Source: Escherichia phage wV7. From it: DNA of 64,000 nt. Each line of letters opens with the position of its first letter. The first letter of the stretch is position 1. The notes under the pieces were generated by a model, which had not been told where the DNA came from, ran no database searches, and saw nothing but the letters and a program-made list of their open reading frames with translations. The position numbers were made by a program, and so were the translations under genes. Shown here in pieces: positions 4,064 to 63,989 of this stretch. The stretch is from the sequence record NC_019505.1; one strand, given 5' to 3'.

Positions 4064-5488
4064 TTATGGATAAGTATAGATGATACCAGTTTCTAAAGCA
4101 GTTTTATGGATGATGTATCCATTACGTGATTCTTGAACATCAACTTCTGAATAATCTTTCATCATCTTCTGAAGCGTATAACGATGCAAGTAGTACTTAC
4201 TATCTGGATCTTCAGTTTTCCAATCTTTACCTTCTTCAGTCATTTTTTGGATTTCATCCATAACCCACCAACCGCACCAGATATAAGCTGAAGTACGATG
4301 TGGAAGAGGATGAACATAAGGCAATTCACCTTCTGGTTCCGGAGCAACTTTATCAGTTACCTGAACTTGACCTGTTGTTTTAACTGTTTTACTATCATAG
4401 TCGGTTGCTGTAACGACAGCAGTAACTTCAATAGTTTGACTTCCAATAGATGAGGTGTCAACGGTGTATACGTTAGTTGACCCTTCTACAGGAGAAGAAT
4501 CTTTCTTCCATGAATAAGTAATTTGTGCTGCTTCAGGTGCTCCAGTAACATTAGCCGTAAATGTAGCCGAAGCATCTTGCTGAACGTTAATAGAAGGAGG
4601 AGTCAATGTAACCTGTGGATTCATTGTCTTCTTATTAACTGTCAATGATACTTCATTAGAAGTAACTTCCTTTTCATTGTAATTTTCTGCAGTTACTTGC
4701 GCTACACATTTAATTCTTTTTACTCCACTTGTAGTTGGAGTATAGTTAAATGTAGAGTTAGTTTCTCCACCAATTTGAGAATCATCTACATACCACTTAT
4801 ATGTAGCAGACGCTCCATCAGGTTGAGAAGCTAAGGCAGCAGTAAATTGAACTGGAGTTCCAATTACTCCAGCTGAAGGACTATTAGGAGTTACAACTAA
4901 AGTAGTCGCTTGGGTTTTCTTGTTAACAGTCAGCGACACTTCGTCAGAAGTAACGGTCTTTGTATCATAATCTGTCGCAGTTACTTGAGCTACACACTTA
5001 ATTTTTTTAACTCCGCTTGTGGCAGGAGTATAGTTAAATGTAGCGTCAGTTGCTTCTCCCACAGGAGAACCGTCGACGTGCCATTGATACGTAGCAGATG
5101 CACCTGGCGGCTGTGAATCTAAGGCAGCGGTAAATTGAACAGCTGTTCCGATTACTCCTTCCGAAGGACTATCAGGAGTTACTGTTATTGTAGTAGTCTG
5201 TGTCTTATTTTGAACTGTGATAGTTGTCGTAGCTTCTGCTGTTTCAGGTTCAGATTCAGATTCTGGAACTGTATTTGTTGCAACGACTTTAATAGTCTTT
5301 TGACCGGCAGGTCCTTTTAGTACATAACTAAAAGTTGCTTCAGCTCCATCCTGTGGAACATTATCTACACTCCAAGCATAGGTAATAGTTCCACCTTCAG
5401 TTTGACCACTGGGTGCAGCAGTAAACTGCTTGGTTTCATCAATAACTCCTGTTGGGGTTTTAGGAGTTATATCAACTGTAAAAGTCAT
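4064..5488 (-). CDS. hoc: Highly immunogenic outer capsid protein Hoc, 474 aa with four Ig-like domains
   Basis: N-terminus MTFTVDITPKTPTGVIDETKQF and C-terminus ...IHKTALETGIIYTYP as recalled for T4 Hoc; internal tandem Ig-like repeats. Confidence 0.9.
   Translation of the reverse strand: MTFTVDITPKTPTGVIDETKQFTAAPSGQTEGGTITYAWSVDNVPQDGAEATFSYVLKGPAGQKTIKVVATNTVPESESEPETAEATTTITVQNKTQTTTITVTPDSPSEGVIGTAVQFTAALDSQPPGASATYQWHVDGSPVGEATDATFNYTPATSGVKKIKCVAQVTATDYDTKTVTSDEVSLTVNKKTQATTLVVTPNSPSAGVIGTPVQFTAALASQPDGASATYKWYVDDSQIGGETNSTFNYTPTTSGVKRIKCVAQVTAENYNEKEVTSNEVSLTVNKKTMNPQVTLTPPSINVQQDASATFTANVTGAPEAAQITYSWKKDSSPVEGSTNVYTVDTSSIGSQTIEVTAVVTATDYDSKTVKTTGQVQVTDKVAPEPEGELPYVHPLPHRTSAYIWCGWWVMDEIQKMTEEGKDWKTEDPDSKYYLHRYTLQKMMKDYSEVDVQESRNGYIIHKTALETGIIYTYP
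4643..5182 (-). repeat. Tandem in-frame duplication (~270 nt each) encoding two near-identical Hoc Ig-like domains
   Basis: Protein segments TPDSPSEGVIGTAVQFTAALDSQPPGASATYQWHVDG... and TPNSPSAGVIGTPVQFTAALASQPDGASATYKWYVDD... are near-identical; matching DNA around 4630-4770 and 4920-5060. Confidence 0.8.
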
Positions 5489-16686: not shown

Positions 16687-16717
16687 TTTGTGTTCCTCAT
16701 GTTATGTCAGTAAGACT

Positions 16718-16747
16718 ACTATAACACAACATGAGGGACTTGTAAAC
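16718..16747 (-). promoter_or_regulatory. Early promoter (GTTTACA, 17 nt, TATAGT) inside a leader inverted repeat
   Basis: Minus strand: gTTTACAagtccctcatgttgtgtTATAGTAgtcttactgacataacatgaggaacacaaaATG. Confidence 0.6.
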
Positions 16748-18804
16748 TACATTTTGAACTTTTTAGACATTCCGTTGATGTTAACCAAAGAAGCTAAGAT
16801 TTGAGAAACTTCGTTTTCCTCTTCTTTTGATTCTTCTACAAGGAATTGATTAAATCCAGCCATTGGACGAACTTCACCAGTTTCCATTAGATGGTCGCCA
16901 TCATATACTGATTCTTCTAATTGTTCAGAAGGAGGAACGATTGTACCTTCGATTAGATACTTGTTATAAGCAGTTTCTTTCATAAAGTAAGTACTTACTT
17001 TATTAATCTTCAGTAAAATTCCACGTGGTAGAATAACTTCAGCTTCTGATGGAAATCCTGACAAATGACCTGGAACGATAACTTTAACTCGTTCAGCTCC
17101 TTTAATTACCATACCCACGCTAGTTTCAGCATCTTCATTAGCATATGTAGAATGACTACCCATATGCATCAAATCTTCTGCATCAACGGAACCTTCTCCT
17201 TCACCAGAAAATACTGCTCCGGAATTATCTAAGGCCATATAATTTTTACCATACTCACCAAAGATATTTGGTTTAAGTGATGTCGATACGAAGTTCTTGA
17301 AATAGAACATTTTATTTTCAATGTTATGACGCAAAGTTTTAAAAGTAACTTCTTGTCCACGGTAAAGTGTAGTTCCTGGAGGAAGAACTGAACCTTTAGC
17401 GAATGCAGAATCCAGCGTCTCAATATGTTTAATAGCTCGTTCCATATATTCTTCACGTGTAGAATCAGGTTTACCTAAAAGGAATGAGTTCATTTCAACA
17501 TACGAATCTGCGCAATAATCTTCAATTACATCAGACTCAGCCTGAGTCAATCCTTTTGGAGTTACTTCAGTGCTTGCATATTCATACGCCTGAGCAGCGG
17601 ATTCATCAATTAATTTATAAATGCCATTCATGACAAATTGAATAATAGCTGTCTTTTCATCTGGCGTAGCTTTAGAACCTTTAACTAAATCATTGACAAT
17701 TTTCTTAATAACATCAAAGCTATTAGAAATATTAATGTCAGCAAGATCGCTTAAAATTTTATCAGTTTTATAATCAAAAAATTCTTTATTCTTTAAATAT
17801 TCTTGAGAACTTTGATATGTTATATCGCTCTGCAACTTGATAGATGGATCACGTAAACGTGCATGGGCTAATGCAATATGATTTCGGAAGCTTTCTAGTT
17901 CATAATCGTTAGATTTAAAACGAGAAGCACTTCTCATACCACCGATAGCTCCTTTGCTGAAGTTTGAACCAATCTGAATAACGCCAGAGTTCATTGGTCC
18001 TTCTGCTTTATATACCGGAACTTTAGATTCAAACTCTTGATATTTCTTAGCAGCGAAGCTATCACCCTGAAGTGAAGCATCAACAGTAGAATATTGAGCT
18101 TGTGCTGCTAATCGACGGCTAATTTTAGTTTTCTGAATAACAGCTTGATCCGTACGCTTATCATTTTCTAAAGCAATAGAAGCAGCAACTGCGACAGCTT
18201 TAGGAACAGCATTACCTGTTTTAACGTCTACATAAACATCACCAACCTTTGATTCAACTTTTGTGAATAACTCAGTTGAAATAGGAGGTACACCTGGAAT
18301 GTCTTCTAAATTGGCATTTTTACGGTAAACCATAATATATGCATATTTCTTATCATAGTCCCAGATTTCCTTTAAAAGAACATATCGACCTGCTCCTTTA
18401 GTACGTACTAAACGGTCAGCAATAACTTGCATTTGACGAGCAGCGCCGTTTGTTTTACTTTTTAGTACGCGGAATAGGCATGCATCAATTTTATACTGTT
18501 TCATTGTTTGAAGAGCAGTATCAAAAACCGCATTAATGACGCCAATTGGATTTCCACCCAAGTTTTTAAGCTTAACTAACGATAATTTCTCGTTGACGCC
18601 TATCATTACGATATGCATCATTTTGTCGCCTGGCTTAACGTTTTTATTCGTATCACCGCCAGAGGTGTATGTACAAAATCTAAATCCAGGAAGCACGCTT
18701 TCTTCACCGGCTTGAATAGCAAAAATTTGTGGTATTTTATGCTTAGGATTTAAGTTAACAACCGGCGCCGAAGCGCCGTCAAATAATTCTGTAATAAGTT
18801 CCAT
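16747..18804 (-). CDS. Alt-like mono-ADP-ribosyltransferase, second tandem paralog (685 aa)
   Basis: N-terminus MELITELFD..., CTYTSGGDTN, YVLLKE.WDYDKKYAYI; C-terminal R...STS...EAEVILPRG motif set. Confidence 0.8.
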   Translation of the reverse strand: MELITELFDGASAPVVNLNPKHKIPQIFAIQAGEESVLPGFRFCTYTSGGDTNKNVKPGDKMMHIVMIGVNEKLSLVKLKNLGGNPIGVINAVFDTALQTMKQYKIDACLFRVLKSKTNGAARQMQVIADRLVRTKGAGRYVLLKEIWDYDKKYAYIMVYRKNANLEDIPGVPPISTELFTKVESKVGDVYVDVKTGNAVPKAVAVAASIALENDKRTDQAVIQKTKISRRLAAQAQYSTVDASLQGDSFAAKKYQEFESKVPVYKAEGPMNSGVIQIGSNFSKGAIGGMRSASRFKSNDYELESFRNHIALAHARLRDPSIKLQSDITYQSSQEYLKNKEFFDYKTDKILSDLADINISNSFDVIKKIVNDLVKGSKATPDEKTAIIQFVMNGIYKLIDESAAQAYEYASTEVTPKGLTQAESDVIEDYCADSYVEMNSFLLGKPDSTREEYMERAIKHIETLDSAFAKGSVLPPGTTLYRGQEVTFKTLRHNIENKMFYFKNFVSTSLKPNIFGEYGKNYMALDNSGAVFSGEGEGSVDAEDLMHMGSHSTYANEDAETSVGMVIKGAERVKVIVPGHLSGFPSEAEVILPRGILLKINKVSTYFMKETAYNKYLIEGTIVPPSEQLEESVYDGDHLMETGEVRPMAGFNQFLVEESKEEENEVSQILASLVNINGMSKKFKM

Positions 18805-18807
18805 GAT

Positions 18808-20904
18808 TTATCCTTGAACGAACTTGTAAGGCATGTTTGTAATATCTATGCAAGACGCAATAATTCCAAGAGATGATTCTACTTTCTGTTTAACATTTGA
18901 TGAAACAAATGATGCAAAGTCAACTCTGTCTTCTATTTCAATATCACCTGTCATTGCAACCAATTCACCAGTTTCCATTAAATGGTCTCCGTCATAGATT
19001 ACCGATTCGGTGAGCTCTTCCGTGGTCATAACTTCAGCTTGAATGAGTTTTGTATTATTAGATGTTGTTCCGTCATTATTAGAAGCATCAGTTATTTTAT
19101 TAACTTTGACCATCAATCCACGCGGTAGAATAACTTCAGCTTCTGTTGCTATTCCGAGACTTCCTGGATATACAACATTAACTTTATGAGCTCCATCAAT
19201 TGCCCATCCTATTTGAACTTTAACGTATTCAGGATTTTCTTTATACGCTCTTATTTCGTTTGGATTAATAGTTATTCCTTCTTCATTTTTATCAACTGTT
19301 AATTCATTGCGAGCTTCTGGTTCTAAAAGACCAATACCAGCATGTGTGATTCCAAAACGTCCAAAAATGATAGGAGTTAAAGAAGTAGATACAAAATTTC
19401 TGAAGTAGAACACTTTATTTTTAACTAACGCTTCATATATAGGAGCAGTCATACTTTGAGCACGATAAACTGTGATGCCTTCCGGTATGCGGTCACCATT
19501 TTCAAAAGCTGAATCTAAGTTATTTATAGCAGATTCAATTTCTTTTTCACTCATTACATCATATCGTTCTGGATTGTAACGACCTAAAAGAAGATTATTG
19601 ATGTCAGTATATCCTGAACCGCAATATTCTCTAATGCCACGCTTTTGTGATGGAGTATATTTAGAACCATCGCGGGCAATAGTAATATCAATCATTGGAC
19701 CAGCACCAATTCCAGAAAAACTGTAAATCATTCGTTTGAGGAATTTAGTTTTTGCTGCGTTCCAGGAATTTTTAGTTATTTCTTCCCAGACTTCATCTGG
19801 TTGTCCTTTACGATTTTTATTATGATTAGCAAGCCATTTATCTTTATAATCTTCAAAGAATTGATTTACAGCTGCTGCGTATTTCTCTAAACATTTTATT
19901 GAAGTAGTTGGTTCATTTTTAATTGCATTAAAAATTACTTCTTTAATTTTTTCTGAAACTTCACCGACTTGACTCATTGGAAAGAATTTATAATCATAGT
20001 GAAGTTCATCTGCCGTTCCTTCAGCAATAATTTTTGCTGCCTTTGTTTTAGAAGCTAATGAATTAATTCCAATTTTCATTTCTTCTGCTTCGGGAATTAA
20101 AGGTGCAGTAGCTGGTTTATTAAAATTAGCTGCTGTAGATTCATACTTCTGGAATAATTCACTTTCAAATCTAGAAGATTCCAATGACTGACTTTGTGCA
20201 ATTGCTCTACGGGAAATTTTAACTTTAACGATTACGGCTTGGTCAGAACGTTTATCATTTTCTTGTGCAATAGATGCAGCAATTGCCTCATTTTTGGTTA
20301 CTTGAGCTCCAGTATCTTTATTGATATAAACATCACCGACCTTCGATTCAACTTTAGTAAAGAGCTCGGTGCTAATTTCTGGAACTCCTGGAATGTCTTC
20401 TAGTGATACATTTTTACGATGTATAAGAATATATGCATACTTTTTATCGTAATCCCAGAGTTCCTTAAGAAGGACGTATCTGCCACCTGAACGACTACGG
20501 ATAAGTCTATCAGCAATAACTTGAATTTGTCGAGCTTGGCCAGCAGTTTTAGACTTAAGAATACGAAGCATACAAGCATCAATTTTATATTGACGCATTG
20601 TTTGCATTGCAACAGTAAAAACTGAATTGATATAATTAATTGGGCTTGGACCAAGACCTTTTAATTTAGCAATTGAACCTTTAGCAGTTAATGTAAAAGG
20701 AACAATGTGCATCATTTTGTCGCCCATTTTTAAATCGCGATTAGTATCACCTCCAGATGTATATGTACATAAACGAAAGCCTGGTTGTTCAATTGCATCA
20801 TCAACATGAACTGAAAAAATTTGTGGTATTTTCTTCTTTGGATTTAAGTTTGTAATCGGAAGAGTAGTATCTTCGTCAAATAATTCTGTAATAAGTTCCA
20901 TCAT
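18808..20904 (-). CDS. alt: Alt, packaged ADP-ribosyltransferase (698 aa)
   Basis: Same architecture as the downstream paralog, with YRAQ / FVSTSL / TEAEVILPRG; late promoter immediately upstream. Confidence 0.85.
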   Translation of the reverse strand: MMELITELFDEDTTLPITNLNPKKKIPQIFSVHVDDAIEQPGFRLCTYTSGGDTNRDLKMGDKMMHIVPFTLTAKGSIAKLKGLGPSPINYINSVFTVAMQTMRQYKIDACMLRILKSKTAGQARQIQVIADRLIRSRSGGRYVLLKELWDYDKKYAYILIHRKNVSLEDIPGVPEISTELFTKVESKVGDVYINKDTGAQVTKNEAIAASIAQENDKRSDQAVIVKVKISRRAIAQSQSLESSRFESELFQKYESTAANFNKPATAPLIPEAEEMKIGINSLASKTKAAKIIAEGTADELHYDYKFFPMSQVGEVSEKIKEVIFNAIKNEPTTSIKCLEKYAAAVNQFFEDYKDKWLANHNKNRKGQPDEVWEEITKNSWNAAKTKFLKRMIYSFSGIGAGPMIDITIARDGSKYTPSQKRGIREYCGSGYTDINNLLLGRYNPERYDVMSEKEIESAINNLDSAFENGDRIPEGITVYRAQSMTAPIYEALVKNKVFYFRNFVSTSLTPIIFGRFGITHAGIGLLEPEARNELTVDKNEEGITINPNEIRAYKENPEYVKVQIGWAIDGAHKVNVVYPGSLGIATEAEVILPRGLMVKVNKITDASNNDGTTSNNTKLIQAEVMTTEELTESVIYDGDHLMETGELVAMTGDIEIEDRVDFASFVSSNVKQKVESSLGIIASCIDITNMPYKFVQG

Positions 20905-24840: not shown

Positions 24841-24879
24841 GTATTTTCCTCAGTAAGGGGCCGAAGCCCCTGTTTTATT

Positions 24880-25245
24880 TTAAATATCAAATTCGTTAAG
24901 AACTACATCAAAGATTGCTTCAAGATGCTCAGGTTTAGCTCTGTTACTCAGAATATGACGAATCCAAGTTTTAACCAAAAGCTTGCGATTATCACCATTC
25001 CAGCAAGGATGAGTCCCTAAATCGCGTTGACGAAAATCATCATCCAGAGCGATTTTGAAGTTTGAACCTTCCATTGTGATTGAAACCGTGATGCCATTTT
25101 CAAATCGCATATAAACGTAGTTAGGAGTCATATACTGTTCAATTTCGCATACTGATCCATTTTGATGTTTCCAAAGGCAGATAGTATCAATAGAACCTGC
25201 AATACCATTAGAAACATATTTACGTTCAAAGTTGATGTAGTTCAT
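24880..25245 (-). CDS. Hypothetical protein
   Basis: 121 aa ORF. Confidence 0.55.
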   Translation of the reverse strand: MNYINFERKYVSNGIAGSIDTICLWKHQNGSVCEIEQYMTPNYVYMRFENGITVSITMEGSNFKIALDDDFRQRDLGTHPCWNGDNRKLLVKTWIRHILSNRAKPEHLEAIFDVVLNEFDI

Positions 25246-25313
25246 TTTTATTCTCCGAGATGTTTAATTGCGGTACAGGTATATAATATCATATCCTGTA
25301 CCAAAGTAAACAA

Positions 25314-25646
25314 TTATTTTACTACTTTCCAGTGCTTCATGTCAAGTTTACCAACTTTTTTCATCTTCTCAATCAAACGTTCGGCACGTTGGCGAGCTGT
25401 AACATAATACCATTCGCCTAATTCATTTTGTTCAATTTTTCCAACGATTACTGTATTCAATTCATAAATCCAACCAGTAAAGAAATTATGAACTTGAATT
25501 GTAAAGGTGAAATCTGTTCCCATACCTTCTGTTGTTTCTACTTCAATAATATCACCTTCAACTGCCATTAAGAACCACATAGTTTCATCATATTTACCAT
25601 TGAAGCATTTAGTTTTAACTGCAGCGTTCAGATTAATCGTTTTCAT
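25314..25646 (-). CDS. Hypothetical protein
   Basis: 110 aa ORF preceded by an early promoter and ribosome-binding site. Confidence 0.55.
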   Translation of the reverse strand: MKTINLNAAVKTKCFNGKYDETMWFLMAVEGDIIEVETTEGMGTDFTFTIQVHNFFTGWIYELNTVIVGKIEQNELGEWYYVTARQRAERLIEKMKKVGKLDMKHWKVVK

Positions 25647-25673
25647 TTTATTCTCCTTTGTTTGTGTAAGATA

Positions 25674-25751
25674 ATACTATCACAAAGGAACCATACTGTA
25701 AACAACTTTGTGCAATCTTTGGAAAATAAAAAAGGACTCCCGAAGGAGTCC
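25674..25751 (-). promoter_or_regulatory. Terminator hairpin GGACTCC-CGAA-GGAGTCC followed by an early promoter (GTTTACA, 17 nt, TAGTAT)
   Basis: Minus strand: hairpin, ttttttattttcc..., gTTTACAgtatggttcctttgtgaTAGTAT, then the ribosome-binding site of ORF 25314..25646. Confidence 0.55.
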
Positions 25752-25756
25752 TCAAC

Positions 25757-28472: not shown

Positions 28473-28708
28473 AGTACGCCATACACCCTTTGTGCTTCAA
28501 CTAATCCATCAAAATCTAATTTAAGATGCGATATTTGATCGCCATCACCTGGATTCACAATTACTAATACTGAACGAGGAGTTTCAGTAATAACACGAAC
28601 CGATGTTTCAGGAAATCGTTCAGAAACCTTATTTACCAATTCCTGTGCAAATAGCTTAACTTTTTCTTGGAATTCTTTAACAGTAATCGGTTTTTCACTT
28701 AGCAGCAT
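28469..28708 (-). CDS. Hypothetical protein (cd.2 position)
   Basis: 79 aa ORF. Confidence 0.5.
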   Translation of the reverse strand: MLLSEKPITVKEFQEKVKLFAQELVNKVSERFPETSVRVITETPRSVLVIVNPGDGDQISHLKLDFDGLVEAQRVYGVL

Positions 28709-28770
28709 TTTGTTTTCCTCATTTGTTTTGGTAGAGCTATAATATCACAACTCTACCGTAAAGTAAACTA

Positions 28771-31516: not shown

Positions 31517-32013
31517 AAAGTTTTAATAACCTCTATAATATCGTCTTGAGAAAGACCGTTAATTAAAATATGATGTTCAGCCGGAGATTTAGAAATTTTA
31601 AAGCACGCCGCAACATCTTCTGCCATATCCGATGCGCTACGATTTGGATTACTAATTCCAAGACGATGCTTTCCTGTCAAAGGATTAACGATGATATAGC
31701 ATTTGCAGCTATTGATATGAACATTAGGTTGAGTCTGATTAATAAACACTTCACAATCATACTTAGCGAGTTGATTTTCTAAAAAGACTTTCATCTCCTC
31801 AACCGCATCAGGAAGCATATCACGGGCTTGCTCAAGACGACGATTTCGATATTCTTTAATGGTCGTTTTCCGCTTGACTTGCTTAGCTAAATCTTTCTTA
31901 AGATCGGTGATATATCCAACTCGACGATTTCCTTTGAATACAGAAATCCCATCTGTAGTATCACCGTATGCTTCAACGACCATTTCAGTAGTAATAAGCT
32001 GCAAATCCATCAT
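31507..32013 (-). CDS. alc: Alc, inhibitor of host transcription on cytosine-containing DNA
   Basis: 168 aa, MMDLQLITTEMVVEAYGDTTDG...; size and position as T4 alc. Confidence 0.8.
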   Translation of the reverse strand: MMDLQLITTEMVVEAYGDTTDGISVFKGNRRVGYITDLKKDLAKQVKRKTTIKEYRNRRLEQARDMLPDAVEEMKVFLENQLAKYDCEVFINQTQPNVHINSCKCYIIVNPLTGKHRLGISNPNRSASDMAEDVAACFKISKSPAEHHILINGLSQDDIIEVIKTLCM

Positions 32014-32041
32014 AAAGTCCTCATGTTATGTCAGTAAGATT

Positions 32042-32071
32042 ACTATAACACAACACGAGGGACTTGTAAAC
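32042..32071 (-). promoter_or_regulatory. Early promoter (GTTTACA, 17 nt, TATAGT); near-identical copy of the 16718-16747 element
   Basis: Minus strand: gTTTACAagtccctcgtgttgtgtTATAGTAatcttactgacataacatgaggactttATG. Confidence 0.6.
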
Positions 32072-40394: not shown

Positions 40395-40634
40395 TCACGC
40401 TTTCTTAGCGACTTTCCAGTCAGCTTTAAATTGGTCAACGTCAGAGTGATGAATCCAGAAACCAGATGAGCTACCATCTTCATAAAGAGGACAACCATCA
40501 CACTCATCTTCCCATCCCATATCACGTAAAAGATGTTCAGCTTTTTCAATGAGTTCAGAATCTTTACCGATGATATTAAAATACCATTTACCTCTAACTT
40601 CTGAATCTTTGATGCTCTGGCGTTGTAATCTCAT
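40395..40634 (-). CDS. Hypothetical early protein (start at ATG after promoter)
   Basis: Track ORF 40395..40724 reads through the promoter; ribosome-binding site plus ATG at about 40634. Confidence 0.5.
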   Translation of the reverse strand: MRLQRQSIKDSEVRGKWYFNIIGKDSELIEKAEHLLRDMGWEDECDGCPLYEDGSSSGFWIHHSDVDQFKADWKVAKKA

Positions 40635-40660
40635 TTTATTCTCCTCAAGTTGATAGGGTA

Positions 40661-40690
40661 ATAGTATCACACTACTACCCTGTTGTAAAC
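40661..40690 (-). promoter_or_regulatory. Early promoter (GTTTACA, 17 nt, TACTAT)
   Basis: Minus strand: tTTTACAacagggtagtagtgtgaTACTATTaccctatcaacttgaggagaataaaATG. Confidence 0.55.
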
Positions 40691-41387: not shown

Positions 41388-41618
41388 TTATTGTTCAATC
41401 AGTCCCATGTAAAATTCTGCGTCTTCAGAATCCATGCCATCGCAATATTCATTAGCCATAAAGCGGGTAAGGTCTTCAAGAGGACCTTCAATGACAATAG
41501 AAAAATTGCAATAATTGGGATCATCATGAATACTTGTGATACTAAGTTCAGGATAACGATTACGAATAATCTCTTCAATATATTCAAAATCAACGATGTC
41601 AATATCAACTTTAGCCAT
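41388..41618 (-). CDS. Hypothetical early protein (frd.3 position), ~76 aa
   Basis: Track ORF reads through the promoter; real start [16 protein letters not shown] after ribosome-binding site gaggaaaataatATG. Confidence 0.5.
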
Positions 41619-41661
41619 ATTATTTTCCTCTTTAATCATCAGCAGTATTGCCGATAGTTGT

Positions 41662-41691
41662 ATAGTACCATGGAAGGACAAGGATGTAAAC
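41662..41691 (-). promoter_or_regulatory. Early promoter (GTTTACA, 17 nt, TACTAT) directly downstream of the gene 32 terminator
   Basis: Minus strand: ttttttattttcaaaaattttttcacaaaactgTTTACAtccttgtccttccatggTACTATAcaactatc. Confidence 0.6.
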
Positions 41692-41723
41692 AGTTTTGTG
41701 AAAAAATTTTTGAAAATAAAAAA

Positions 41724-41742
41724 GGGGACCTCTAGGGTCCCC
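41724..41742 (-). terminator. Gene 32 terminator hairpin GGGGACC-loop-GGTCCCC
   Basis: 7-bp perfect stem followed by a U-run on the minus strand, just 3' of the gene 32 stop. Confidence 0.65.
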
Positions 41743-41765
41743 AATTAATTAGTAATTATAATCTA

Positions 41766-44935: not shown

Positions 44936-45006
44936 ATGAACCTCGTTCAATTAGTGAGATTTCTATTATATACCATCCAAATCTTAAAGTAAACAAGTAT
45001 AAATAC

Positions 45007-45039: not shown

Positions 45040-48000
45040 ATGGCCGAGATTAAAAGAAAGTTCAGAGCAGAAGACGGTCTGGACGCAGGTGGTGATAAAA
45101 TAATCAACGTAGCTTTAGCTGATCGTACCGTAGGAACTGACGGTGTAAACGTTGATTACTTAATTCAAGAAAACACAGTTCAACAATATGATCCAACTCG
45201 TGGATATTTAAAAGATTTTGTAATCATTTATGATAACCGCTTTTGGGCTGCTATAAATGATATTCCAAAACCAGCAGGAGCTTTTAATAGCGTACGATGG
45301 AGAGCGTTACGCACTGATGCAAACTGGACAACTGTTTCGTCAGGACCCTATCAATTAAAATCAGGCGAATCGATTTCAGTTAACACCGCAGCGGGTAATG
45401 ACATTACATTTACTTTGCCATCTTCTCCAATTGATGGTGATACTATCGTTCTCCAAGATATTGGAGGAAAACCTGGAGTTAACCAGGTTTTAATTACAGC
45501 TCCGGTACAAAGCATTGTAAACTTTAGAGGTCAACAAGTACGCTCAGTACTAATGACTCATCCAAAATCACAGATAGTTTTAATTTTTAGTAATCGTCTG
45601 TGGCAAATGTATGTTGCTGATTATAGCAGAGAAGCGGCAGTTGTAACACCGGCAAGTCTTTATCAAGCGCAATCAAACGATTTTATCGTGCGTAGATTTA
45701 CTTCTGCTTCAGCAATTAATATTAAACTTCCTAGATTTGCTAATCATGGGGATATTATTAATTTTGTTGATTTAGATAAATTAAATCCGTTATATCATAC
45801 TATCGTTACTACATACGATGAAACTACTTCTGTACAAGAAGTTGGAACTCATTCCATTGAAGGTCGTACATCTATTGATGGTTTCTTGATGTTTGATGAT
45901 AATGAGAAATTGTGGAGATTGTTTGACGGGGATAGTAAAGCACGTTTACGCATTATAACGACTAATTCTAATATTCGTCCAAATGAAGAAGTCATGGTAT
46001 TTGGCGCGAATAATGGAACAACCCAAACAATTGAACTTCAGCTTCCAACTGATATTTCTATCGGTGATACTGTTAAGATTTCCATGAATTATATGAGAAA
46101 AGGACAAACAGTTAAAATCAAAGCTGCCGGTGAAGATAAAATTGCTTCTTCAGTTCAATTGCTGCAATTTCCAAAACGTTCAGAATACCCACCTGAAACT
46201 AAATGGGTGACTGTTCAAGAATTAGTTTTTAATGGCGAAACCAATTATGTTCCAGTTTTACAGCTTGCTTATATCGAAGATTCTGACGGAAAATATTGGG
46301 TTGTACAGCAAAACGTTCCAACTGTAGAAAGAGTAGACTCTTTAAATAATTCTACTAGAGCAAGATTAGGGGTAATTGCTTTAGCTACACAAGCTCAAGC
46401 TAATGCTGATTTAGAAAATTCTCCACAAAAAGAATTGGCAATTACTCCAGAAACGTTAGCTAATCGTACTGCTACAGAAACTCGTAGAGGTATTGCAAGA
46501 ATAGCAACTACTGCTCAAGTTAACCAGGATACTACATTCTCTTTTGCTGATGATATTATCATCACTCCTAAAAAGCTGAATGAAAGAACAGCTACTGAAA
46601 CTCGTAGGGGTGTCGCTGAAATTGCTACGCAACAGGAAACTAATACAGGTACTGATGATACGACAATCATCACTCCTAAAAAGCTTCAAGCTCGCCAAGG
46701 TTCTGAATCATTATCTGGTATTGTAACTTTTGTATCTACTGCAGGTGCTACTCCAGCTTCTAGCCGTGAATTAAATGGTACGAATGTTTATAATAAAAAC
46801 ACTAATAATTTAGTTGTTTCACCTAAAGCTTTGGATCAGTATAAAGCTACTCCAACACAGCAAGGTGCAGTAATTTTAGCAGTTGAAAGTGAAGTAATTG
46901 CTGGTCAAAGTCAAGAAGGATGGGCAAATGCTGTTGTAACTCCAGAAACGTTACACAAAAAGACATCAACTGATGGAAGAATTGGATTAATTGAAATTGC
47001 TACGCAAAGTGAAGTTAATACAGGAACTGATTATACTCGTGCAGTCACTCCTAAAACTTTAAATGACCGTAGAGCAACTGAAAGTTTAAGTGGTATAGCT
47101 GAAATTGCTACACAAGTTGAATTCGACGCGGGCGTCGACGATACTCGTATCTCTACACCATTAAAAATTAAAACCAGATTTAATAGTACTGATCGTACTT
47201 CTGTTGTTGCTCTATCTGGATTAGTTGAATCAGGAACTCTCTGGGACCATTATACCCTTAATATTCTTGAAGCAAACGAGACACAACGTGGTACACTTCG
47301 TGTAGCTACACAAGTCGAAGCTGCTGCAGGAACATTAGATAATGTTTTAATAACTCCTAAAAAGCTTTTAGGTACTAAATCTACTGAAGCGCAAGAAGGT
47401 GTTATTAAAGTTGCAACACAAACCGAAACTGTTGCTGGTACATCATCTAATACTGCTGTATCTCCAAAGAATTTAAAATGGATCGTGCAGAGTGAACCTA
47501 CTTGGGCAGCTACTACTACAGTAAGAGGCTTTGTTAAAACTTCATCTGGTTCAATTACATTCGTTGGTAATGATACAGCCGGTTCTACTCAGGACTTAGA
47601 GCTATACGAGAAAAATAGCTATGCAGTATCACCATACGAATTAAACCGTGTATTAGCAAATTATTTGCCATTAAAAGCAAAAGCTGCAGATAGTAATTTA
47701 TTGGATGGTCTAGATTCATCTCAGTTCATTCGTAGGGATATTGCACAGACGGTTAATGGTTCACTAACCTTAACCCAACAAACGAATCTGAGTGCCCCTC
47801 TTGTATCATCTAGTACTGCTACGTTTGGTGGATCAGTTTCGGCAAATAGTACATTAACTATTTCTAATACTGGAACGGCAACTCGTCTGATTTTTGAGAA
47901 AGGACCTCAAACTGGAACAAACCCAGCCCAAACGATGACTGTTAGAGTGTGGGGAAATCAATTTAGTGGGGAATTAGATACAACACGTTCTACCGTATTT

Positions 48001-54105: not shown

Positions 54106-54110
54106 AATGA

Positions 54111-54124
54111 GGGGCTTCGGCCCC
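54111..54124 (+). other. GGGGC-TTCG-GCCCC hairpin between genes 37 and 38
   Basis: Perfect stem and UUCG loop, followed by ribosome-binding site GGAG and the gene 38 ATG. Confidence 0.6.
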
Positions 54125-54136
54125 TTGGAGGTTTAT

Positions 54137-57624: not shown

Positions 57625-58260
57625 TCACAGTTCAGATGCTACAGTGATTACAGCTTCAATGTTTTCTACCGAGCGTTTAATGTCAAGATACACATTGCCG
57701 TTTTTAGCGATTTTACAAGACATTCCGATGTCAGTAAATTTCTGAATATGATGTTCCATCATTTTATATCCAAAAATTCGCATATTTCCATTGTTGTTAA
57801 TTTCAAAATTACGAATTCCGTGAGTGCGTTTTTCTAAAATAGCAAGATAGTTACTGCGATAAGTTTCAACCTTTTTAAGAACAAATCCATTTTCATCCAA
57901 AAGTTTTAACATGAGGTCTTTATCTTCTTCCATATCAGAAGTAATCTCGCGAGCTTTACGAGTTGCTCGTTTTTTCAGCAGTTCCGGAGCATTTTCCTGT
58001 GCGTATAAAGTTGCTGCGTTTGAAATAATATCCTGAGCTTCACCTGTAATGATTAATCCATCACCAGATTTCTCCACCAGGCCTTTTTTAATCAATACCC
58101 CAATATTACTATTAACTACTGCGTTACCTAAATCTGGATGCACCTCACGAACTTCTGCAGCTGTAATGAAATCTTTCTTAGCAATGGTAATTAAAATCGC
58201 AGCAGTTTTTTCATTCAGAACATCGTTAGAAGCTTTGATGATGTAAGTTACTTTAGACAT
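57625..58260 (-). CDS. motA: MotA, middle-promoter transcription activator
   Basis: 211 aa, MSKVTYIIKASNDVLNEKTAAILITIAKKDFITAAEVREVHPDLGNAVVNSNIGVLIKKGLVEKSGDGL... Confidence 0.92.
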   Translation of the reverse strand: MSKVTYIIKASNDVLNEKTAAILITIAKKDFITAAEVREVHPDLGNAVVNSNIGVLIKKGLVEKSGDGLIITGEAQDIISNAATLYAQENAPELLKKRATRKAREITSDMEEDKDLMLKLLDENGFVLKKVETYRSNYLAILEKRTHGIRNFEINNNGNMRIFGYKMMEHHIQKFTDIGMSCKIAKNGNVYLDIKRSVENIEAVITVASEL

Positions 58261-58301
58261 TTTCTAATCTCCGTAATTCTGTATCAGTAGTTGATAGTTG
58301 T

Positions 58302-58331
58302 ATAGTACCATAGAATGCTTTGGTTGTAAAC
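58302..58331 (-). promoter_or_regulatory. Early promoter for motA (GTTTACA, 17 nt, TACTAT)
   Basis: Minus strand: ttttttatttcaaaaattttttcacaaaacggTTTACAaccaaagcattctatggTACTATAcaactatcaactac. Confidence 0.65.
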
Positions 58332-58362
58332 CGTTTTGTGAAAAAATTTTTGAAATAAAAAA

Positions 58363-58382
58363 GGGAGAGCCTCGGCTCTCCC
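58363..58382 (-). terminator. Hairpin GGGAGAGC-CTCG-GCTCTCCC upstream of the motA promoter
   Basis: 8-bp perfect stem, then a U-run on the minus strand. Confidence 0.6.
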
Positions 58383-58387
58383 TAAAA

Positions 58388-61419: not shown

Positions 61420-61449
61420 ATAGTACCACGGAAGAACAGTCTTGTAAAC
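61420..61449 (-). promoter_or_regulatory. Early promoter (GTTTACA, 17 nt, TACTAT)
   Basis: Minus strand: gTTTACAagactgttcttccgtggTACTATTaccctatcaactacggaggaacagaaaATG. Confidence 0.55.
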
Positions 61450-61633: not shown

Positions 61634-61897
61634 TCATAGCTCAATCTCAGCGATTTTCATTTCATTACTATTAATAGCCGCTTTAAGACTATCTGAAAGA
61701 ATTACATTCCAGTGGTCATTCATATGACCATTAACTAAGCGTGTAATTTCTTCGGGAGTTGAAAAATAAGGCGTATCAGACTCCCAATGCGATAATCCTA
61801 AGCGAGTATAAATCATACCTTCATCATCGCTAGAATATTCAACTGACACAAACTCATCAGTTATTTTATGTTTAGCGTAATAAAATTTAAATTTCAT
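61634..61897 (-). CDS. Hypothetical protein (~87 aa from MKFKFYYAKH)
   Basis: Track ORF reads through the promoter; real start follows ggaggagcggaaaATG. Confidence 0.5.
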   Translation of the reverse strand: MKFKFYYAKHKITDEFVSVEYSSDDEGMIYTRLGLSHWESDTPYFSTPEEITRLVNGHMNDHWNVILSDSLKAAINSNEMKIAEIEL

Positions 61898-61925: not shown

Positions 61926-61955
61926 ATATTACCACGGTCCTTGTGGTATGTAAAC
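61926..61955 (-). promoter_or_regulatory. Early promoter (GTTTACA, 17 nt, TAATAT)
   Basis: Minus strand: aaaattttcacaaaacggTTTACAtaccacaaggaccgtggTAATATAcaactatcaactacggagga. Confidence 0.55.
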
Positions 61956-62791: not shown

Positions 62792-62810
62792 AATTCACCT
62801 TAAAACAAAA

Positions 62811-62822
62811 GGGCCGAAGCCC
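62811..62822 (-). other. GGGC-TTCG-GCCC hairpin (minus-strand reading) upstream of ORF 62462..62791
   Basis: Same 22-nt element as at 63039-63050. Confidence 0.55.
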
Positions 62823-62827
62823 TTATT

Positions 62828-63022
62828 TTATTTGAATTGTGCAATTCTTTTCTCTAAACAATCTGCATAAGATTTCATTGAGATGAACTGTGAAAGCAGC
62901 AGTTCTTGCTCAACTGCACTAACCGTTAGAAACTTTGCGCTTTCTAAAAATTTGCTCAGTGCATTAATTTTGAGCATTAATTGATCGTATTCTTCTTTTA
63001 CTCGTGCTTGATAACCTAACAT
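62828..63022 (-). CDS. Hypothetical small protein bracketed by identical hairpins
   Basis: 64 aa ORF with ribosome-binding site. Confidence 0.5.
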   Translation of the reverse strand: MLGYQARVKEEYDQLMLKINALSKFLESAKFLTVSAVEQELLLSQFISMKSYADCLEKRIAQFK

Positions 63023-63038
63023 AATTTTCCTTAGTTAA

Positions 63039-63050
63039 GGGCCGAAGCCC
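63039..63050 (-). other. GGGC-TTCG-GCCC hairpin immediately 3' of rIIB
   Basis: Abuts the rIIB stop codon. Confidence 0.55.
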
Positions 63051-63989
63051 TTATTTAAATTGTTCAGTAACGTCTTCAATTACTTCGTATTGGCAGGTAC
63101 GCATTTTAGCGTCGTTGTAATCAATCGGAATTGATACTACATCACGAGGATGAACTTTAACTTTTACAACTCGGCTGGTTGAACCACCGAAGTGACGAAT
63201 ATAAGATTTAGAACACACATGCAGACCACGAGAACAAGTTTGTGTATCATCGTCATTCACACGAGTACGCGGCATTTTAACTACTTTACCAGGACTGTTA
63301 TCAAAGGTATTTGAGTGACAGTCAAAGTAATTATTGCGAACTACTTTCCAAGCATAGAAGTAACCATCTTCTGTAATTTCAATATCGTTTGCTACCAAGA
63401 AATCAAAAAGTCGAGATACCGCTTTCTGGCTTGGGTTTTCCAGCAGATTTTCCAAGAACGGAAAATAAAATTCAAAGTTTTCGCCTTTTTCCATCGAATC
63501 AAGAATACGATCAACCAAACCAGACCGCAATTCAATATTTTGATAGAATAAGCTTCCACCTTCAATTCGAACATCGCCGGAAATATATTTTTCAACAGCG
63601 CGACGAACATTAATTTTTTGTGCCGCTTCTTCCAGCTTATCCGCTACAAGCAGATTGAGAATTTCCTGGAAGTTTGAATGAGTATTAGGTGTTGCATTAT
63701 AAGTTACACCATCGACAGTAATCGAAATGAATTTTTTAGATGCATTCCAAATAATGTCAGATTTAGTAACTGGAGCAATAACTGCATCGCTATTAACTTT
63801 AACTGTAATATCACCGCTAATAGTAACTTTAGAGCGTTTAGCTTCTTCAGCATTTTTCAAAACACGACGGATTGTATCAACCGATACACCTTGCCAATCA
63901 GCCAATTCCTGCTGAGTATAATTACCGCTTGAATACAGTTTAACAATTTCAGCTTGTTCGTTTTTGGTCAGGCATTTAATATTGTACAT
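63051..63989 (-). CDS. rIIB: rIIB protein
   Basis: 312 aa, MYNIKCLTKNEQAEIVKLYSSGNYTQQELADWQGVSVDTIRR...; size as recalled for T4 rIIB. Confidence 0.9.
   Translation of the reverse strand: MYNIKCLTKNEQAEIVKLYSSGNYTQQELADWQGVSVDTIRRVLKNAEEAKRSKVTISGDITVKVNSDAVIAPVTKSDIIWNASKKFISITVDGVTYNATPNTHSNFQEILNLLVADKLEEAAQKINVRRAVEKYISGDVRIEGGSLFYQNIELRSGLVDRILDSMEKGENFEFYFPFLENLLENPSQKAVSRLFDFLVANDIEITEDGYFYAWKVVRNNYFDCHSNTFDNSPGKVVKMPRTRVNDDDTQTCSRGLHVCSKSYIRHFGGSTSRVVKVKVHPRDVVSIPIDYNDAKMRTCQYEVIEDVTEQFK

Follow-up and report, generated by a model that had tools for sequence, protein, structure and literature searches.

Why several unrelated early genes of a T4-like phage should be preceded by the same hairpin, promoter and start region is the question raised by the interval between gene 32 (single-strand DNA-binding protein) and frd.3 in Escherichia phage wV7 (NC_019505.1). 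The window, that is, the whole stretch of DNA analysed, comprised 64,000 nt. In an initial annotation, modules consisting of a hairpin and an early-type promoter had been placed at 25674-25751, 41662-41742 and 58302-58382, and a conserved transcribed sequence had been read as a common 5' untranslated region. The three sets of coordinates were right. All three modules lie on the minus strand, as do the other motifs of that annotation; this is the strand of the early genes. The module at 41662-41742 is situated between gene 32 and frd.3, that at 58302-58382 between motA.1 (a small membrane ORF) and motA, and that at 25674-25751 between homologues of 30.9 and 30.8.

A 4-kb segment around the 41662 module matched E. 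coli O157 typing phage 7 (KP869105) at 100% identity and both RB68 and RB51 at 99.3%; approximately 925 T4-like records gave matches. The segment from 54 to 64 kb had the same relatives. Judged by these matches, the window is a Tequatrovirus genome and T4 is a close relative. The protein encoded 3' of the 58302 module begins MSKVTYIIKASNDV and is 97.6% identical to T4 MotA, and the 30.8 product is 98% identical to T4 30.8. T4 counterparts of the modules are found at the orthologous sites 5' of frd.3, motA and 30.8.

Both strands of the window were searched with the promoter pattern GTTTAC-N16-19-TANNNT, using 100 shuffles as a control. Fourteen matches were obtained where 3.4 were expected; 13 of them are on the minus strand, and none of the 100 shuffles reached 14. 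All six sites named previously were among them, namely the three modules, with GTTTACA, a 17-nt spacer and a -10 box as described, and the related promoters lacking a hairpin at 40661, 61420 and 61926. Approximately 12 early-type promoters are present in the window, rather than the eight counted before. Early promoters precede frd.3, motA, 30.8, frd.1, ndd.4, asiA, alc and cd.2, in each case in the orientation of the gene. A repeat search blind to promoters aligned 41653-41728 with 58293-58368 (84% identity over 76 nt, ungapped) and returned a six-copy, 60-nt family at 25661, 28726, 40648, 58289, 61407 and 61913; the repeat families D3, D4 and D13 of the window include cassette copies. The motif excess and the promoter-blind recovery together show that recurrence of the module is real and far beyond chance.

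The order of elements within a module is a GC-rich hairpin with a T-run, an A/T-rich block, GTTTACA, a 17-nt spacer and a TGn-extended -10. After gene 32, the hairpin GGGGACC-ctaga-GGTCCCC (41724-41742, minus strand; 7 pairs, 6 of them GC; -14.3 kcal/mol) is directly followed by a T-run at 41714-41723 on the same strand. After motA.1, the minus-strand hairpin AGGGAGAGC-cgag-GCTCTCCCT (58362-58383; 9 pairs, -17.6 kcal/mol, z = -4.5) precedes a T-run, and the same holds for GAGGACTCC-ttcg-GGAGTCCTT after the 30.9 homologue (25732-25753, minus strand; 9 pairs, -15.9 kcal/mol, z = -4.5). Each hairpin was the top-ranked minus-strand terminator-like site of its own region, and the stems end 5-22 nt past the stop codons of 32, motA.1 and 30.9. 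In 10 Tequatrovirus orthologues of the motA.1 hairpin the stem was invariant and the loop alone varied. A predicted terminator 3' of gene 32 is kept in five of six T4-like genomes (Nolan et al., PMC1524935). By analogy with T4, the three hairpins are predicted to be intrinsic (Rho-independent) terminators at which the transcript would be released.

The frd.3 UP element occupies 41695-41711 (minus strand). Its sequence, AAAAATTTTTTCACAAA, contains an exact AAAWWTWTTTTNNNAAA and stands 4 nt before TTTACA. AAAWWTWTTTTNNNAAA is the E. coli UP-element SELEX consensus of Estrem et al. 1998, in the form quoted in PMC2412878. Against this quoted form, the blocks AAAAATTTTTTCACAAA at 41695-41711 and 58335-58351 agreed at 17 of 17 UP consensus positions and were canonically spaced from the -35, and exact AAAWWTWTTTTNNNAAA was found twice in the window versus 0.05 expected. 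The T-rich block quoted in the initial annotation was exact at 58302, but has one extra T at 41662 and is replaced by a different sequence at 25674. Since the UP block adjoins the T-run, terminator tail and UP element form a single continuous A/T tract. In a T4-wide profile, A stood out near -42 and T near -48 to -50.

GTTTAC(A/T) was present at -36 to -31 at every named site. In the core frd.3 promoter (41662-41691, minus strand), GTTTAC(A) at 41686-41691 is the -35; TGG closes the 17-nt spacer, and TACTAT at 41662-41667 is the -10. The motA promoter (58302-58351, minus strand) comprises a UP element at 58335-58351, a GTTTAC -35 at 58326-58331 and the extended -10 TGGTACTAT at 58302-58310, the -10 again being TACTAT. 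At the 30.8 promoter and leader (25646-25703, minus strand) the -35 is at 25698-25703 and the -10, TAGTAT, at 25674-25679; here the spacer sequence TCCTTTGT and the leader sequence ACAAAGGA are complementary. TG precedes the -10 at 41662, 40661, 58302, 61420 and 61926, and TGATAGTAT is found at 25674. The three promoters without an upstream hairpin, also on the minus strand, are those of frd.1 (40661-40690; leader TACCCT followed by ATCAACTTGAGGAGAATAAA), ndd.4 (61420-61449; TACCCT followed by ATCAACTACGGAGGAACAGAAA) and the ndd.6 locus (61926-61955; ACAACT followed by ATCAACTACGGAGGA), the last driving an 87-aa ORF with its ATG at 61897.

Between T4 and the window, the frd.3, motA, 30.8, frd.1 and ndd.4 promoters were 69-99% identical over -65 to +15, with 96% for motA and 99% for 30.8. 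The record of Yersinia phage fPS-90 annotates a 'terminator' and then a 'predicted early promoter' upstream of motA. The T4 orthologues and this annotation uphold the earlier suggestion of standard T4-type early promoters behind intrinsic terminators. On the T4 literature, these promoters would be active from the very beginning of infection, with unmodified host polymerase.

The position of the transcription start was derived from the T4 record, in which the cd.2 promoter is named Pe133295, a coordinate that follows the G of its GTTTAC by exactly 36 nt. This places +1 at the seventh base after the -10. By the same spacing, transcripts would start at the A at 41655 (frd.3), 58295 (motA) and 25667 (30.8), and the RNA would begin AUCAAC.... 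Approximately six bases, ACAACT, of the block previously described as transcribed would then probably be an untranscribed discriminator upstream of +1. At frd.3 the discriminator and leader span 41619-41661 (minus strand), with ACAACT at 41656-41661, the putative start A at 41655, the Shine-Dalgarno GAGG and the ATG at 41618. At motA they span 58261-58301 (minus strand); here ACAACT is followed, from the putative +1 at 58295, by the 35-nt leader ATCAACTACTGATACAG... and the ATG at 58260.

The conserved transcribed sequence caactatcaactacggagga attributed to the three hairpin modules was exact at the 61926 promoter only, a site without a hairpin. Its overlap with the leaders was 14 nt at motA, 8 nt at frd.3 and nil at the 30.8 site, so a shared leader of approximately 20 nt had been overstated. 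At 58302 (motA) the sequence reads caactatcaactac and then tgatacagaatta...; at 41662 (frd.3) caactatc alone is present and is followed by ggcaatactg...; at 25674 (30.8) the leader tatcttacacaaac is unrelated to the ACAACTATC block. The general feature is a start-site block, ACAACT followed by ATCAACTAC, with the core TATCA at -1 to +4 and a constant spacing to the -10. Roughly one early promoter in three carries it, in T4 and RB69 alike.

ATCA placed exactly 6 nt after the -10 (+1 to +4) was counted in 12 of 35 T4 promoters (0.22 expected), 4 of 11 in the window (0.07 expected) and 10 of 26 in RB69, genus Mosigvirus (0.13 expected). The distance from +1 to the ATG in those promoters ranged from 19 to 37 nt. 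Given the fixed spacing to the -10 and the variable spacing to the ATG, the motif has its anchor in the promoter rather than in the ribosome-binding site. An information profile built from 33 T4 early promoters gave 0.4-0.7 bit for each position from -3 to +7 (c-t-A-t-c-a-a-n-t-a), below the -35 and -10 and clearly above background. In T4, TACTAT-ACAACTATCAACTAC was found 5' of motA, e.8, nrdC.8, nrdC.10, imm.1 and ndd.6, and TACTAT-TACCCTATCAAC 5' of ndd.4 and trna.4, with a shorter TACCCTATCAA at frd.1. Past +5 the commonest variant differs by genus, being ATCAACTAC in T4 and ATCAAAACAA in RB69; the e.8 promoters of the two phages are approximately equal base for base.

Retrieval from IMG/VR on the basis of MotA gave 13 loci, a sample suited to a cross-genus look and too small for population statistics. 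The motA promoters of relatives with 67-69% or 51% MotA identity read GTTTAC...TAYYAT...(c)cTATCAA or CATACCAA...GGAG, and the relatives with 51% identity keep the GC hairpin, the T-run and ttttctcacaaaacaGTTTACA. Judging by these alignments, the start-site motif is old and has been kept across genera. For any additional constraint on the leader, 10 orthologues of the motA cassette were aligned, and conservation was high throughout. As the cassette is conserved everywhere in this set, selection on the leader is inseparable from recent common ancestry.

The presence of the TATCA core in approximately a third of T4 and RB69 early promoters, and at motA of relatives with 51% identity, is an observation that prompts a reading as a cis-element. 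Given its retention in several genera, the motif may have a role in addition to initiation by the polymerase.

Two candidate roles for the start region were tried and rejected. For sigma-70-dependent promoter-proximal pausing, inspection of the hexamers from +1 to +20 of ATCAACTACTGATACAG gave none with the A2 and T6 of a -10-like element. The consensus for NAD-capping preference is HRRASWW, and the start context, AACT followed by ATCA, is unlike it.

The primary T4 early-promoter alignments are reportedly those of Liebig & Ruger 1989, Wilkens & Ruger 1994 and Miller et al. 2003. In the open-access texts on T4 early promoters, a scope that leaves these 1989-2003 alignments aside, the start-site block is not spelled out. 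No functional explanation for the motif was found in the open-access literature, and a literature search for a modern T4 start-site map returned nothing relevant. In the logos of Nolan et al. (PMC1524935) the start site is nucleotide 0; near the start, the text mentions just a preference for C at -3 to -1, in RB69, RB49 and 44RR early promoters.

The initial annotation had suggested that a shared 5' untranslated region could be the target of a regulator or nuclease, and had advised a search for RegB motifs in it. The strong RegB site consensus of T4 early mRNAs is GG*AGRAYARAA (Uzan & Miller 2010, PMC3014915). GGAG was found within the Shine-Dalgarno of five of six examined leaders, frd.3 (GAGG) being the exception, and to this extent the suggestion stands; the shared block itself is anchored to the promoter and mosaic, and does not fit it. 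Exact GGAGRAYARAA occurred three times in the window, each time in an early leader, versus 0.38 expected: in the 30.8 leader (25646-25656, minus strand; GGAGAATAAAA), in an early leader at 25246-25256, and in the frd.1 leader (40634-40644, minus strand). The motA leader has a RegB-type site, GGAGATTAGAA, at 58262-58272 (minus strand) that fits 10 of 11 consensus positions. The fit was weak at 61420 and 61926, and with up to one mismatch allowed the consensus was not enriched in the window (13 versus 10.5 expected). The RegB sites lie at the 3' end of leaders, and frd.3 has none. For the same reason, GGAG being at the leader 3' end and missing at frd.3, RegB was rejected as the cause of the whole shared block. 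On the T4 literature, early leaders with GGAG would be RegB cleavage sites.

Cassettes were compared segment by segment (UP block, spacer, leader) between the window and T4. The 14-nt frd.3 spacer segment of the window scored 0.93 to that of T4 e.8 and at most 0.57 to the orthologous T4 frd.3, while the frd.3 leaders of the two phages were the same (1.00). The 61955 promoter of the window matched its T4 orthologue at 167086 in the UP block (0.93) and spacer (1.00), with a leader equal to that of T4 nrdC.8 (1.00); tblastn of the 87-aa ORF behind it gave no match in T4. T4 frd.3 and nrdC.10 have identical spacers. Four spacer and leader pairings were found: an e.8-type spacer with the e.8 or the frd.3 leader, and a T4-frd.3-type spacer with the frd.3 or the nrdC.10 leader. 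The occurrence of spacer and leader types in all four combinations requires recombination. Further pairs of copies share longer segments. T4 ndd.6 and imm.1 are near-identical into their first codons, through ATGAAAATCGCT, and in the repeat search the alt.-3 and alc promoters were 96% identical over 54 nt.

Probes for the two frd.3 junctions, at a coverage of at least 80%, matched 318 phage records for the window type and 85 for the T4 type; both promoter alleles circulate among sequenced phages. The motA cassette had 7-8 matching places per Tequatrovirus genome (541 records). At the motA locus of phage W143 the promoter is duplicated in tandem, with the junction right after ATCAACTA. In phage Maryam, the motA terminator, UP block, -35 and spacer are followed by the TACCCTATCAAC leader and a different ORF. 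In RB69, frd.3 is found between e.6 and e.8 and not beside gene 32. At frd.3 the breakpoint separates spacer from leader, at the ndd.6 locus it follows +9, in W143 it comes after ATCAACTA, and in Maryam it is within the discriminator; junctions fall in or beside an 18-nt core, TGGTACTATACAACTATC. Cassettes are thus located at borders of gene replacement or rearrangement in each of these cases (the ndd.6 locus, the frd.3 alleles, Maryam, W143 and RB69 frd.3).

The modules are very probably composite terminator/early-promoter cassettes of the PeSL (promoter-early stem-loop) type, whose shared start region would reflect promoter function and recombination between copies. The GC hairpin and U-run would stop transcripts arriving from the upstream gene (32, motA.1 or 30.9). 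Approximately 30 nt downstream of the hairpin, a maximal set of contacts would recruit host sigma-70 polymerase: its alpha C-terminal domains would meet a consensus UP element, and the T4-specific -35 GTTTACA would be combined, across a 17-nt spacer, with TGn and the -10 TAnnnT. Transcription would start at an A seven bases after the -10, giving an RNA with the 5' end AUCAAC.... Most of the short leaders end in a GGAG Shine-Dalgarno, by which the RegB endoribonuclease would later inactivate these early mRNAs. The promoter-anchored motif (c)TATCA(A) at -2 to +5 is general to T4-type early promoters of different genera and most probably serves start-site selection and initiation. Ectopic homologous recombination or gene conversion would spread promoter and leader segments to unrelated genes and swap the genes downstream; the longer identical runs (TGGTACTATACAACTATCAACTAC...) would result from cassettes recombining with one another.

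Other readings of the shared region were weighed. The leader segment that copies have in common at the 5' end (AUCAACUAC..., with AUCAACUACUGAUAC in certain copies) could be a dedicated RNA element by which a subset of early genes is co-regulated through a phage or host factor other than RegB; it might, for example, let RNase E/G enter, form a structure that protects the 5' end, or act as a translational operator. Unrelated genes do have an identical block in their leaders, ATCAACTAC is kept at the orthologous RB69 promoters of e.8, denV and nrdC.8, and leaders of the motA/e.8 type have a short inverted repeat, TATCA...TGATA, at their extreme 5' end. The possible hairpin, however, amounts to 4-5 A-U-rich pairs and is missing in leaders of the GGAGGA and frd.3 types. 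The block keeps its spacing to the -10 and not to the Shine-Dalgarno or ATG, approximately six of its bases would lie upstream of +1, and past +9 several unrelated leader types are joined to it as a mosaic. The majority type in RB69, ATCAAAACAA, leaves ATCAA alone as general. Scanning the entire window against Rfam, with gathering thresholds, gave no match, placing the leaders in no described RNA family. A block that is promoter-anchored and mosaic points to promoter or start-site function with recombination, and a dedicated RNA operator is considered distinctly unlikely. A related proposal is that the start-site block, ACAACT followed by ATCAACTAC, is a dedicated cis-element, recognised in the shut-off that early promoters undergo some minutes into infection, a mechanism described as not completely understood (PMC3014915), or serving as a 5' mark by which a defined subset of early mRNAs is sent to common processing; this is regarded as unlikely.

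The two remaining readings concern how the copies came to be alike. If cassettes were autonomous mobile elements, PeSL mini-circles would be moved by a dedicated recombinase or nuclease with the conserved core as its recognition site. Circular DNAs between neighbouring PeSLs have been described, with the choice between homologous and site-specific recombination left open (Arbiol et al., PMC2839356; PMC4122927), and the junctions found here do fall in or beside TGGTACTATACAACTATC. They are nevertheless scattered rather than at a single fixed position, no recombinase was associated with the cassettes, and general recombination in T4 is very active on short homologies (PMC9391042), all of which makes a dedicated mobility system very unlikely. 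Pure convergence, in which each promoter was optimised independently for polymerase contacts and nothing was exchanged between copies, would accommodate the UP element, -35, TGn and -10, which are all polymerase contacts, the exact match of the two best modules to the quoted SELEX UP consensus, and the recurrence of the start-site motif in distant relatives. It is very unlikely in view of identity that runs through a 14-nt part of the spacer without consensus (T4 frd.3 with nrdC.10; window frd.3 with T4 e.8) and enters leaders and first codons (T4 ndd.6 and imm.1), of the near-identical alt.-3 and alc promoters, and of orthologous loci that carry different paralogous variants. Composite cassettes exchanged by recombination are the preferred reading.

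The arrangement, early promoters behind intrinsic terminators (PeSL) with RegB-sensitive leaders, is already known. The present finding re-identifies textbook T4 signals and the published PeSL concept, and so adds no new biology. Its use is mainly in annotation: for frd.3, motA and 30.8 of this phage it gives the strand, the likely starts and the limits of the transcription units. It also provides clean cases of cassette-mediated gene replacement, at the ndd.6 locus and among the promoter alleles of frd.3. The point that might repay experiment is the start-site motif TATCA(A) conserved across genera.

The modules were compared with four known systems. PeSL cassettes comprise a terminator stem-loop, an AT-rich region, a sigma-70-type early promoter, a Shine-Dalgarno and a start codon, all of which are present here, and no essential difference was found. 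PeSLs number approximately 50 per genome, their promoter and terminator parts are both active, and they mark the edges of insertions, deletions and replacements (Arbiol et al. 2010, PMC2839356); many copies per genome and a link to gene replacements are likewise seen in the window. For the T4/PST pair, Comeau et al. 2014 (PMC4122927) give the PeSL consensus TTTACW-N17-TAYWAT and place the stem-loop immediately upstream of the promoter; the ndd.4/.5 exchange that they illustrate concerns the locus at 61.4-62.0 kb of the window. Two of the three window modules differ in adjoining well-conserved genes (32 and motA) and not hyperplastic ORFan regions.

Compared with RegB targets, of which motA is a classical substrate, the window leaders have GGAG in the Shine-Dalgarno with an A-rich 3' context as in T4, and the motA leader shows the near-complete fit given above; the RegB site, however, is at the 3' end of the leader, whereas the shared block is at the 5' end. 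Compared with the E. coli UP element (rrnB P1 type), as far as the quoted consensus describes it, the 30.8 module at 25703 has a more degenerate version, and in the modules the block directly follows a terminator T-run. With T4 early promoters the window sites have in common GTTTAC at -36 to -31, a TGn-extended -10 and a UP element. The T4 'Uber' early promoters have been described as combining UP, -35, TGn and -10 with "additional regions of consensus" (Hinton 2010, PMC2988021); relative to such texts, the start-site block is quantified here in T4, the window and RB69.

Early promoters in the window and in the genomes of T4 and RB69 were searched for complementarity between the -35/-10 spacer and the leader, with a perfect match of at least 6 nt as the threshold and cross-paired spacers and leaders as the control. 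In many of these promoters an inverted repeat straddles the -10 box: its first arm falls within the spacer and its second within the leader, where it frequently overlaps the Shine-Dalgarno sequence. Perfect complements were present at 8/11 promoters in the window, 19/35 in T4 and 10/26 in RB69, against 14-22% for the cross-paired controls. Window sites, all on the minus strand, were 25646-25703, 25246-25311, 28700-28768 and 40634-40690, together with 16690-16747, 32010-32071 and 44940-44994; those in T4 and RB69 fell in comparison loci L003-L006 and L022-L023. At the denV promoter, the arms are TCTCCTGTAG/CTACAGGAGA in T4 and TTCCTCCAAG/CTTGGAGGAA in RB69, so that the sequences differ but complementarity is kept. 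The two ACAACTATC modules with upstream terminators are without the repeat. Because the 5' arm precedes the start site, only read-through RNA can fold into the hairpin, which would then hide the ribosome-binding site.

Ahead of the alt.-3 and alc homologues, the promoter and leader regions (16694-16747 and 32018-32071) are 96% identical across 54 nt. This shared stretch contains a long spacer/leader inverted repeat whose 3' end is the Shine-Dalgarno GAGGA. The same promoter pair is present in T4, at 123093 and 136336.

Searches for terminator-like sites and repeats also recovered a second set of recurrent hairpins, AAGGGGCCGAAGCCCCT / AAGGGCCGAAGCCCTT, at 24843-24880, 54110-54125, 62796-62833 and 63024-63061; their loop is GAAG/TTCG, and T-runs flank them on both sides. 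The hairpins look like bidirectional terminators, and a reversed Shine-Dalgarno, TTTTCCTCA, lies directly next to several of them. Other direct repeats in the window include a tandem pair of 288 nt with 75% identity (4626-5201), a set of blocks with 71-97% identity spaced at approximately 2094 nt (16856-20904), and 71-nt periodic repeats (46442-47421). The last lie just 3' of the start of what we take, by position, to be gene 34 (proximal tail fibre).

At the ndd.6 locus, the early promoter at 61955 drives an 87-aa ORF (MKFKFYYAKHKITDEF...; 61634-61897, minus strand) for which no T4 homologue was found by tblastn. Behind the orthologous promoter, T4 has a different short ORF (ATGAAAATCGCT...), apparently ndd.6.

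In RB69, frd.3 sits between e.6 and e.8 (L023 22055-22282, equivalent to 72055-72282 of the RB69 record) and does not adjoin gene 32. The frd.3 promoter of the window has a spacer of the e.8 type, which would fit with the frd.3 cassette having moved between the gene 32 and e.8 loci. In an alignment of ten motA upstream regions, the entire motA promoter cassette of Escherichia phage W143, from the UP block to ATCAACTA, is tandemly duplicated (columns 57-125), placing two serial promoters ahead of the motA position. In the same alignment, Escherichia phage vB_EcoM_Maryam shares its terminator, UP block, -35 and spacer with motA, followed from the discriminator on by a TACCCTATCAAC-type leader and then a different small ORF; this arrangement is an insertion or replacement bounded by the cassette. 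Among the promoter-early stem-loop (PeSL) cassettes of T4-like phages, the subclasses with a stem-loop over the -10 are probably the counterpart of the -10-spanning inverted repeats.
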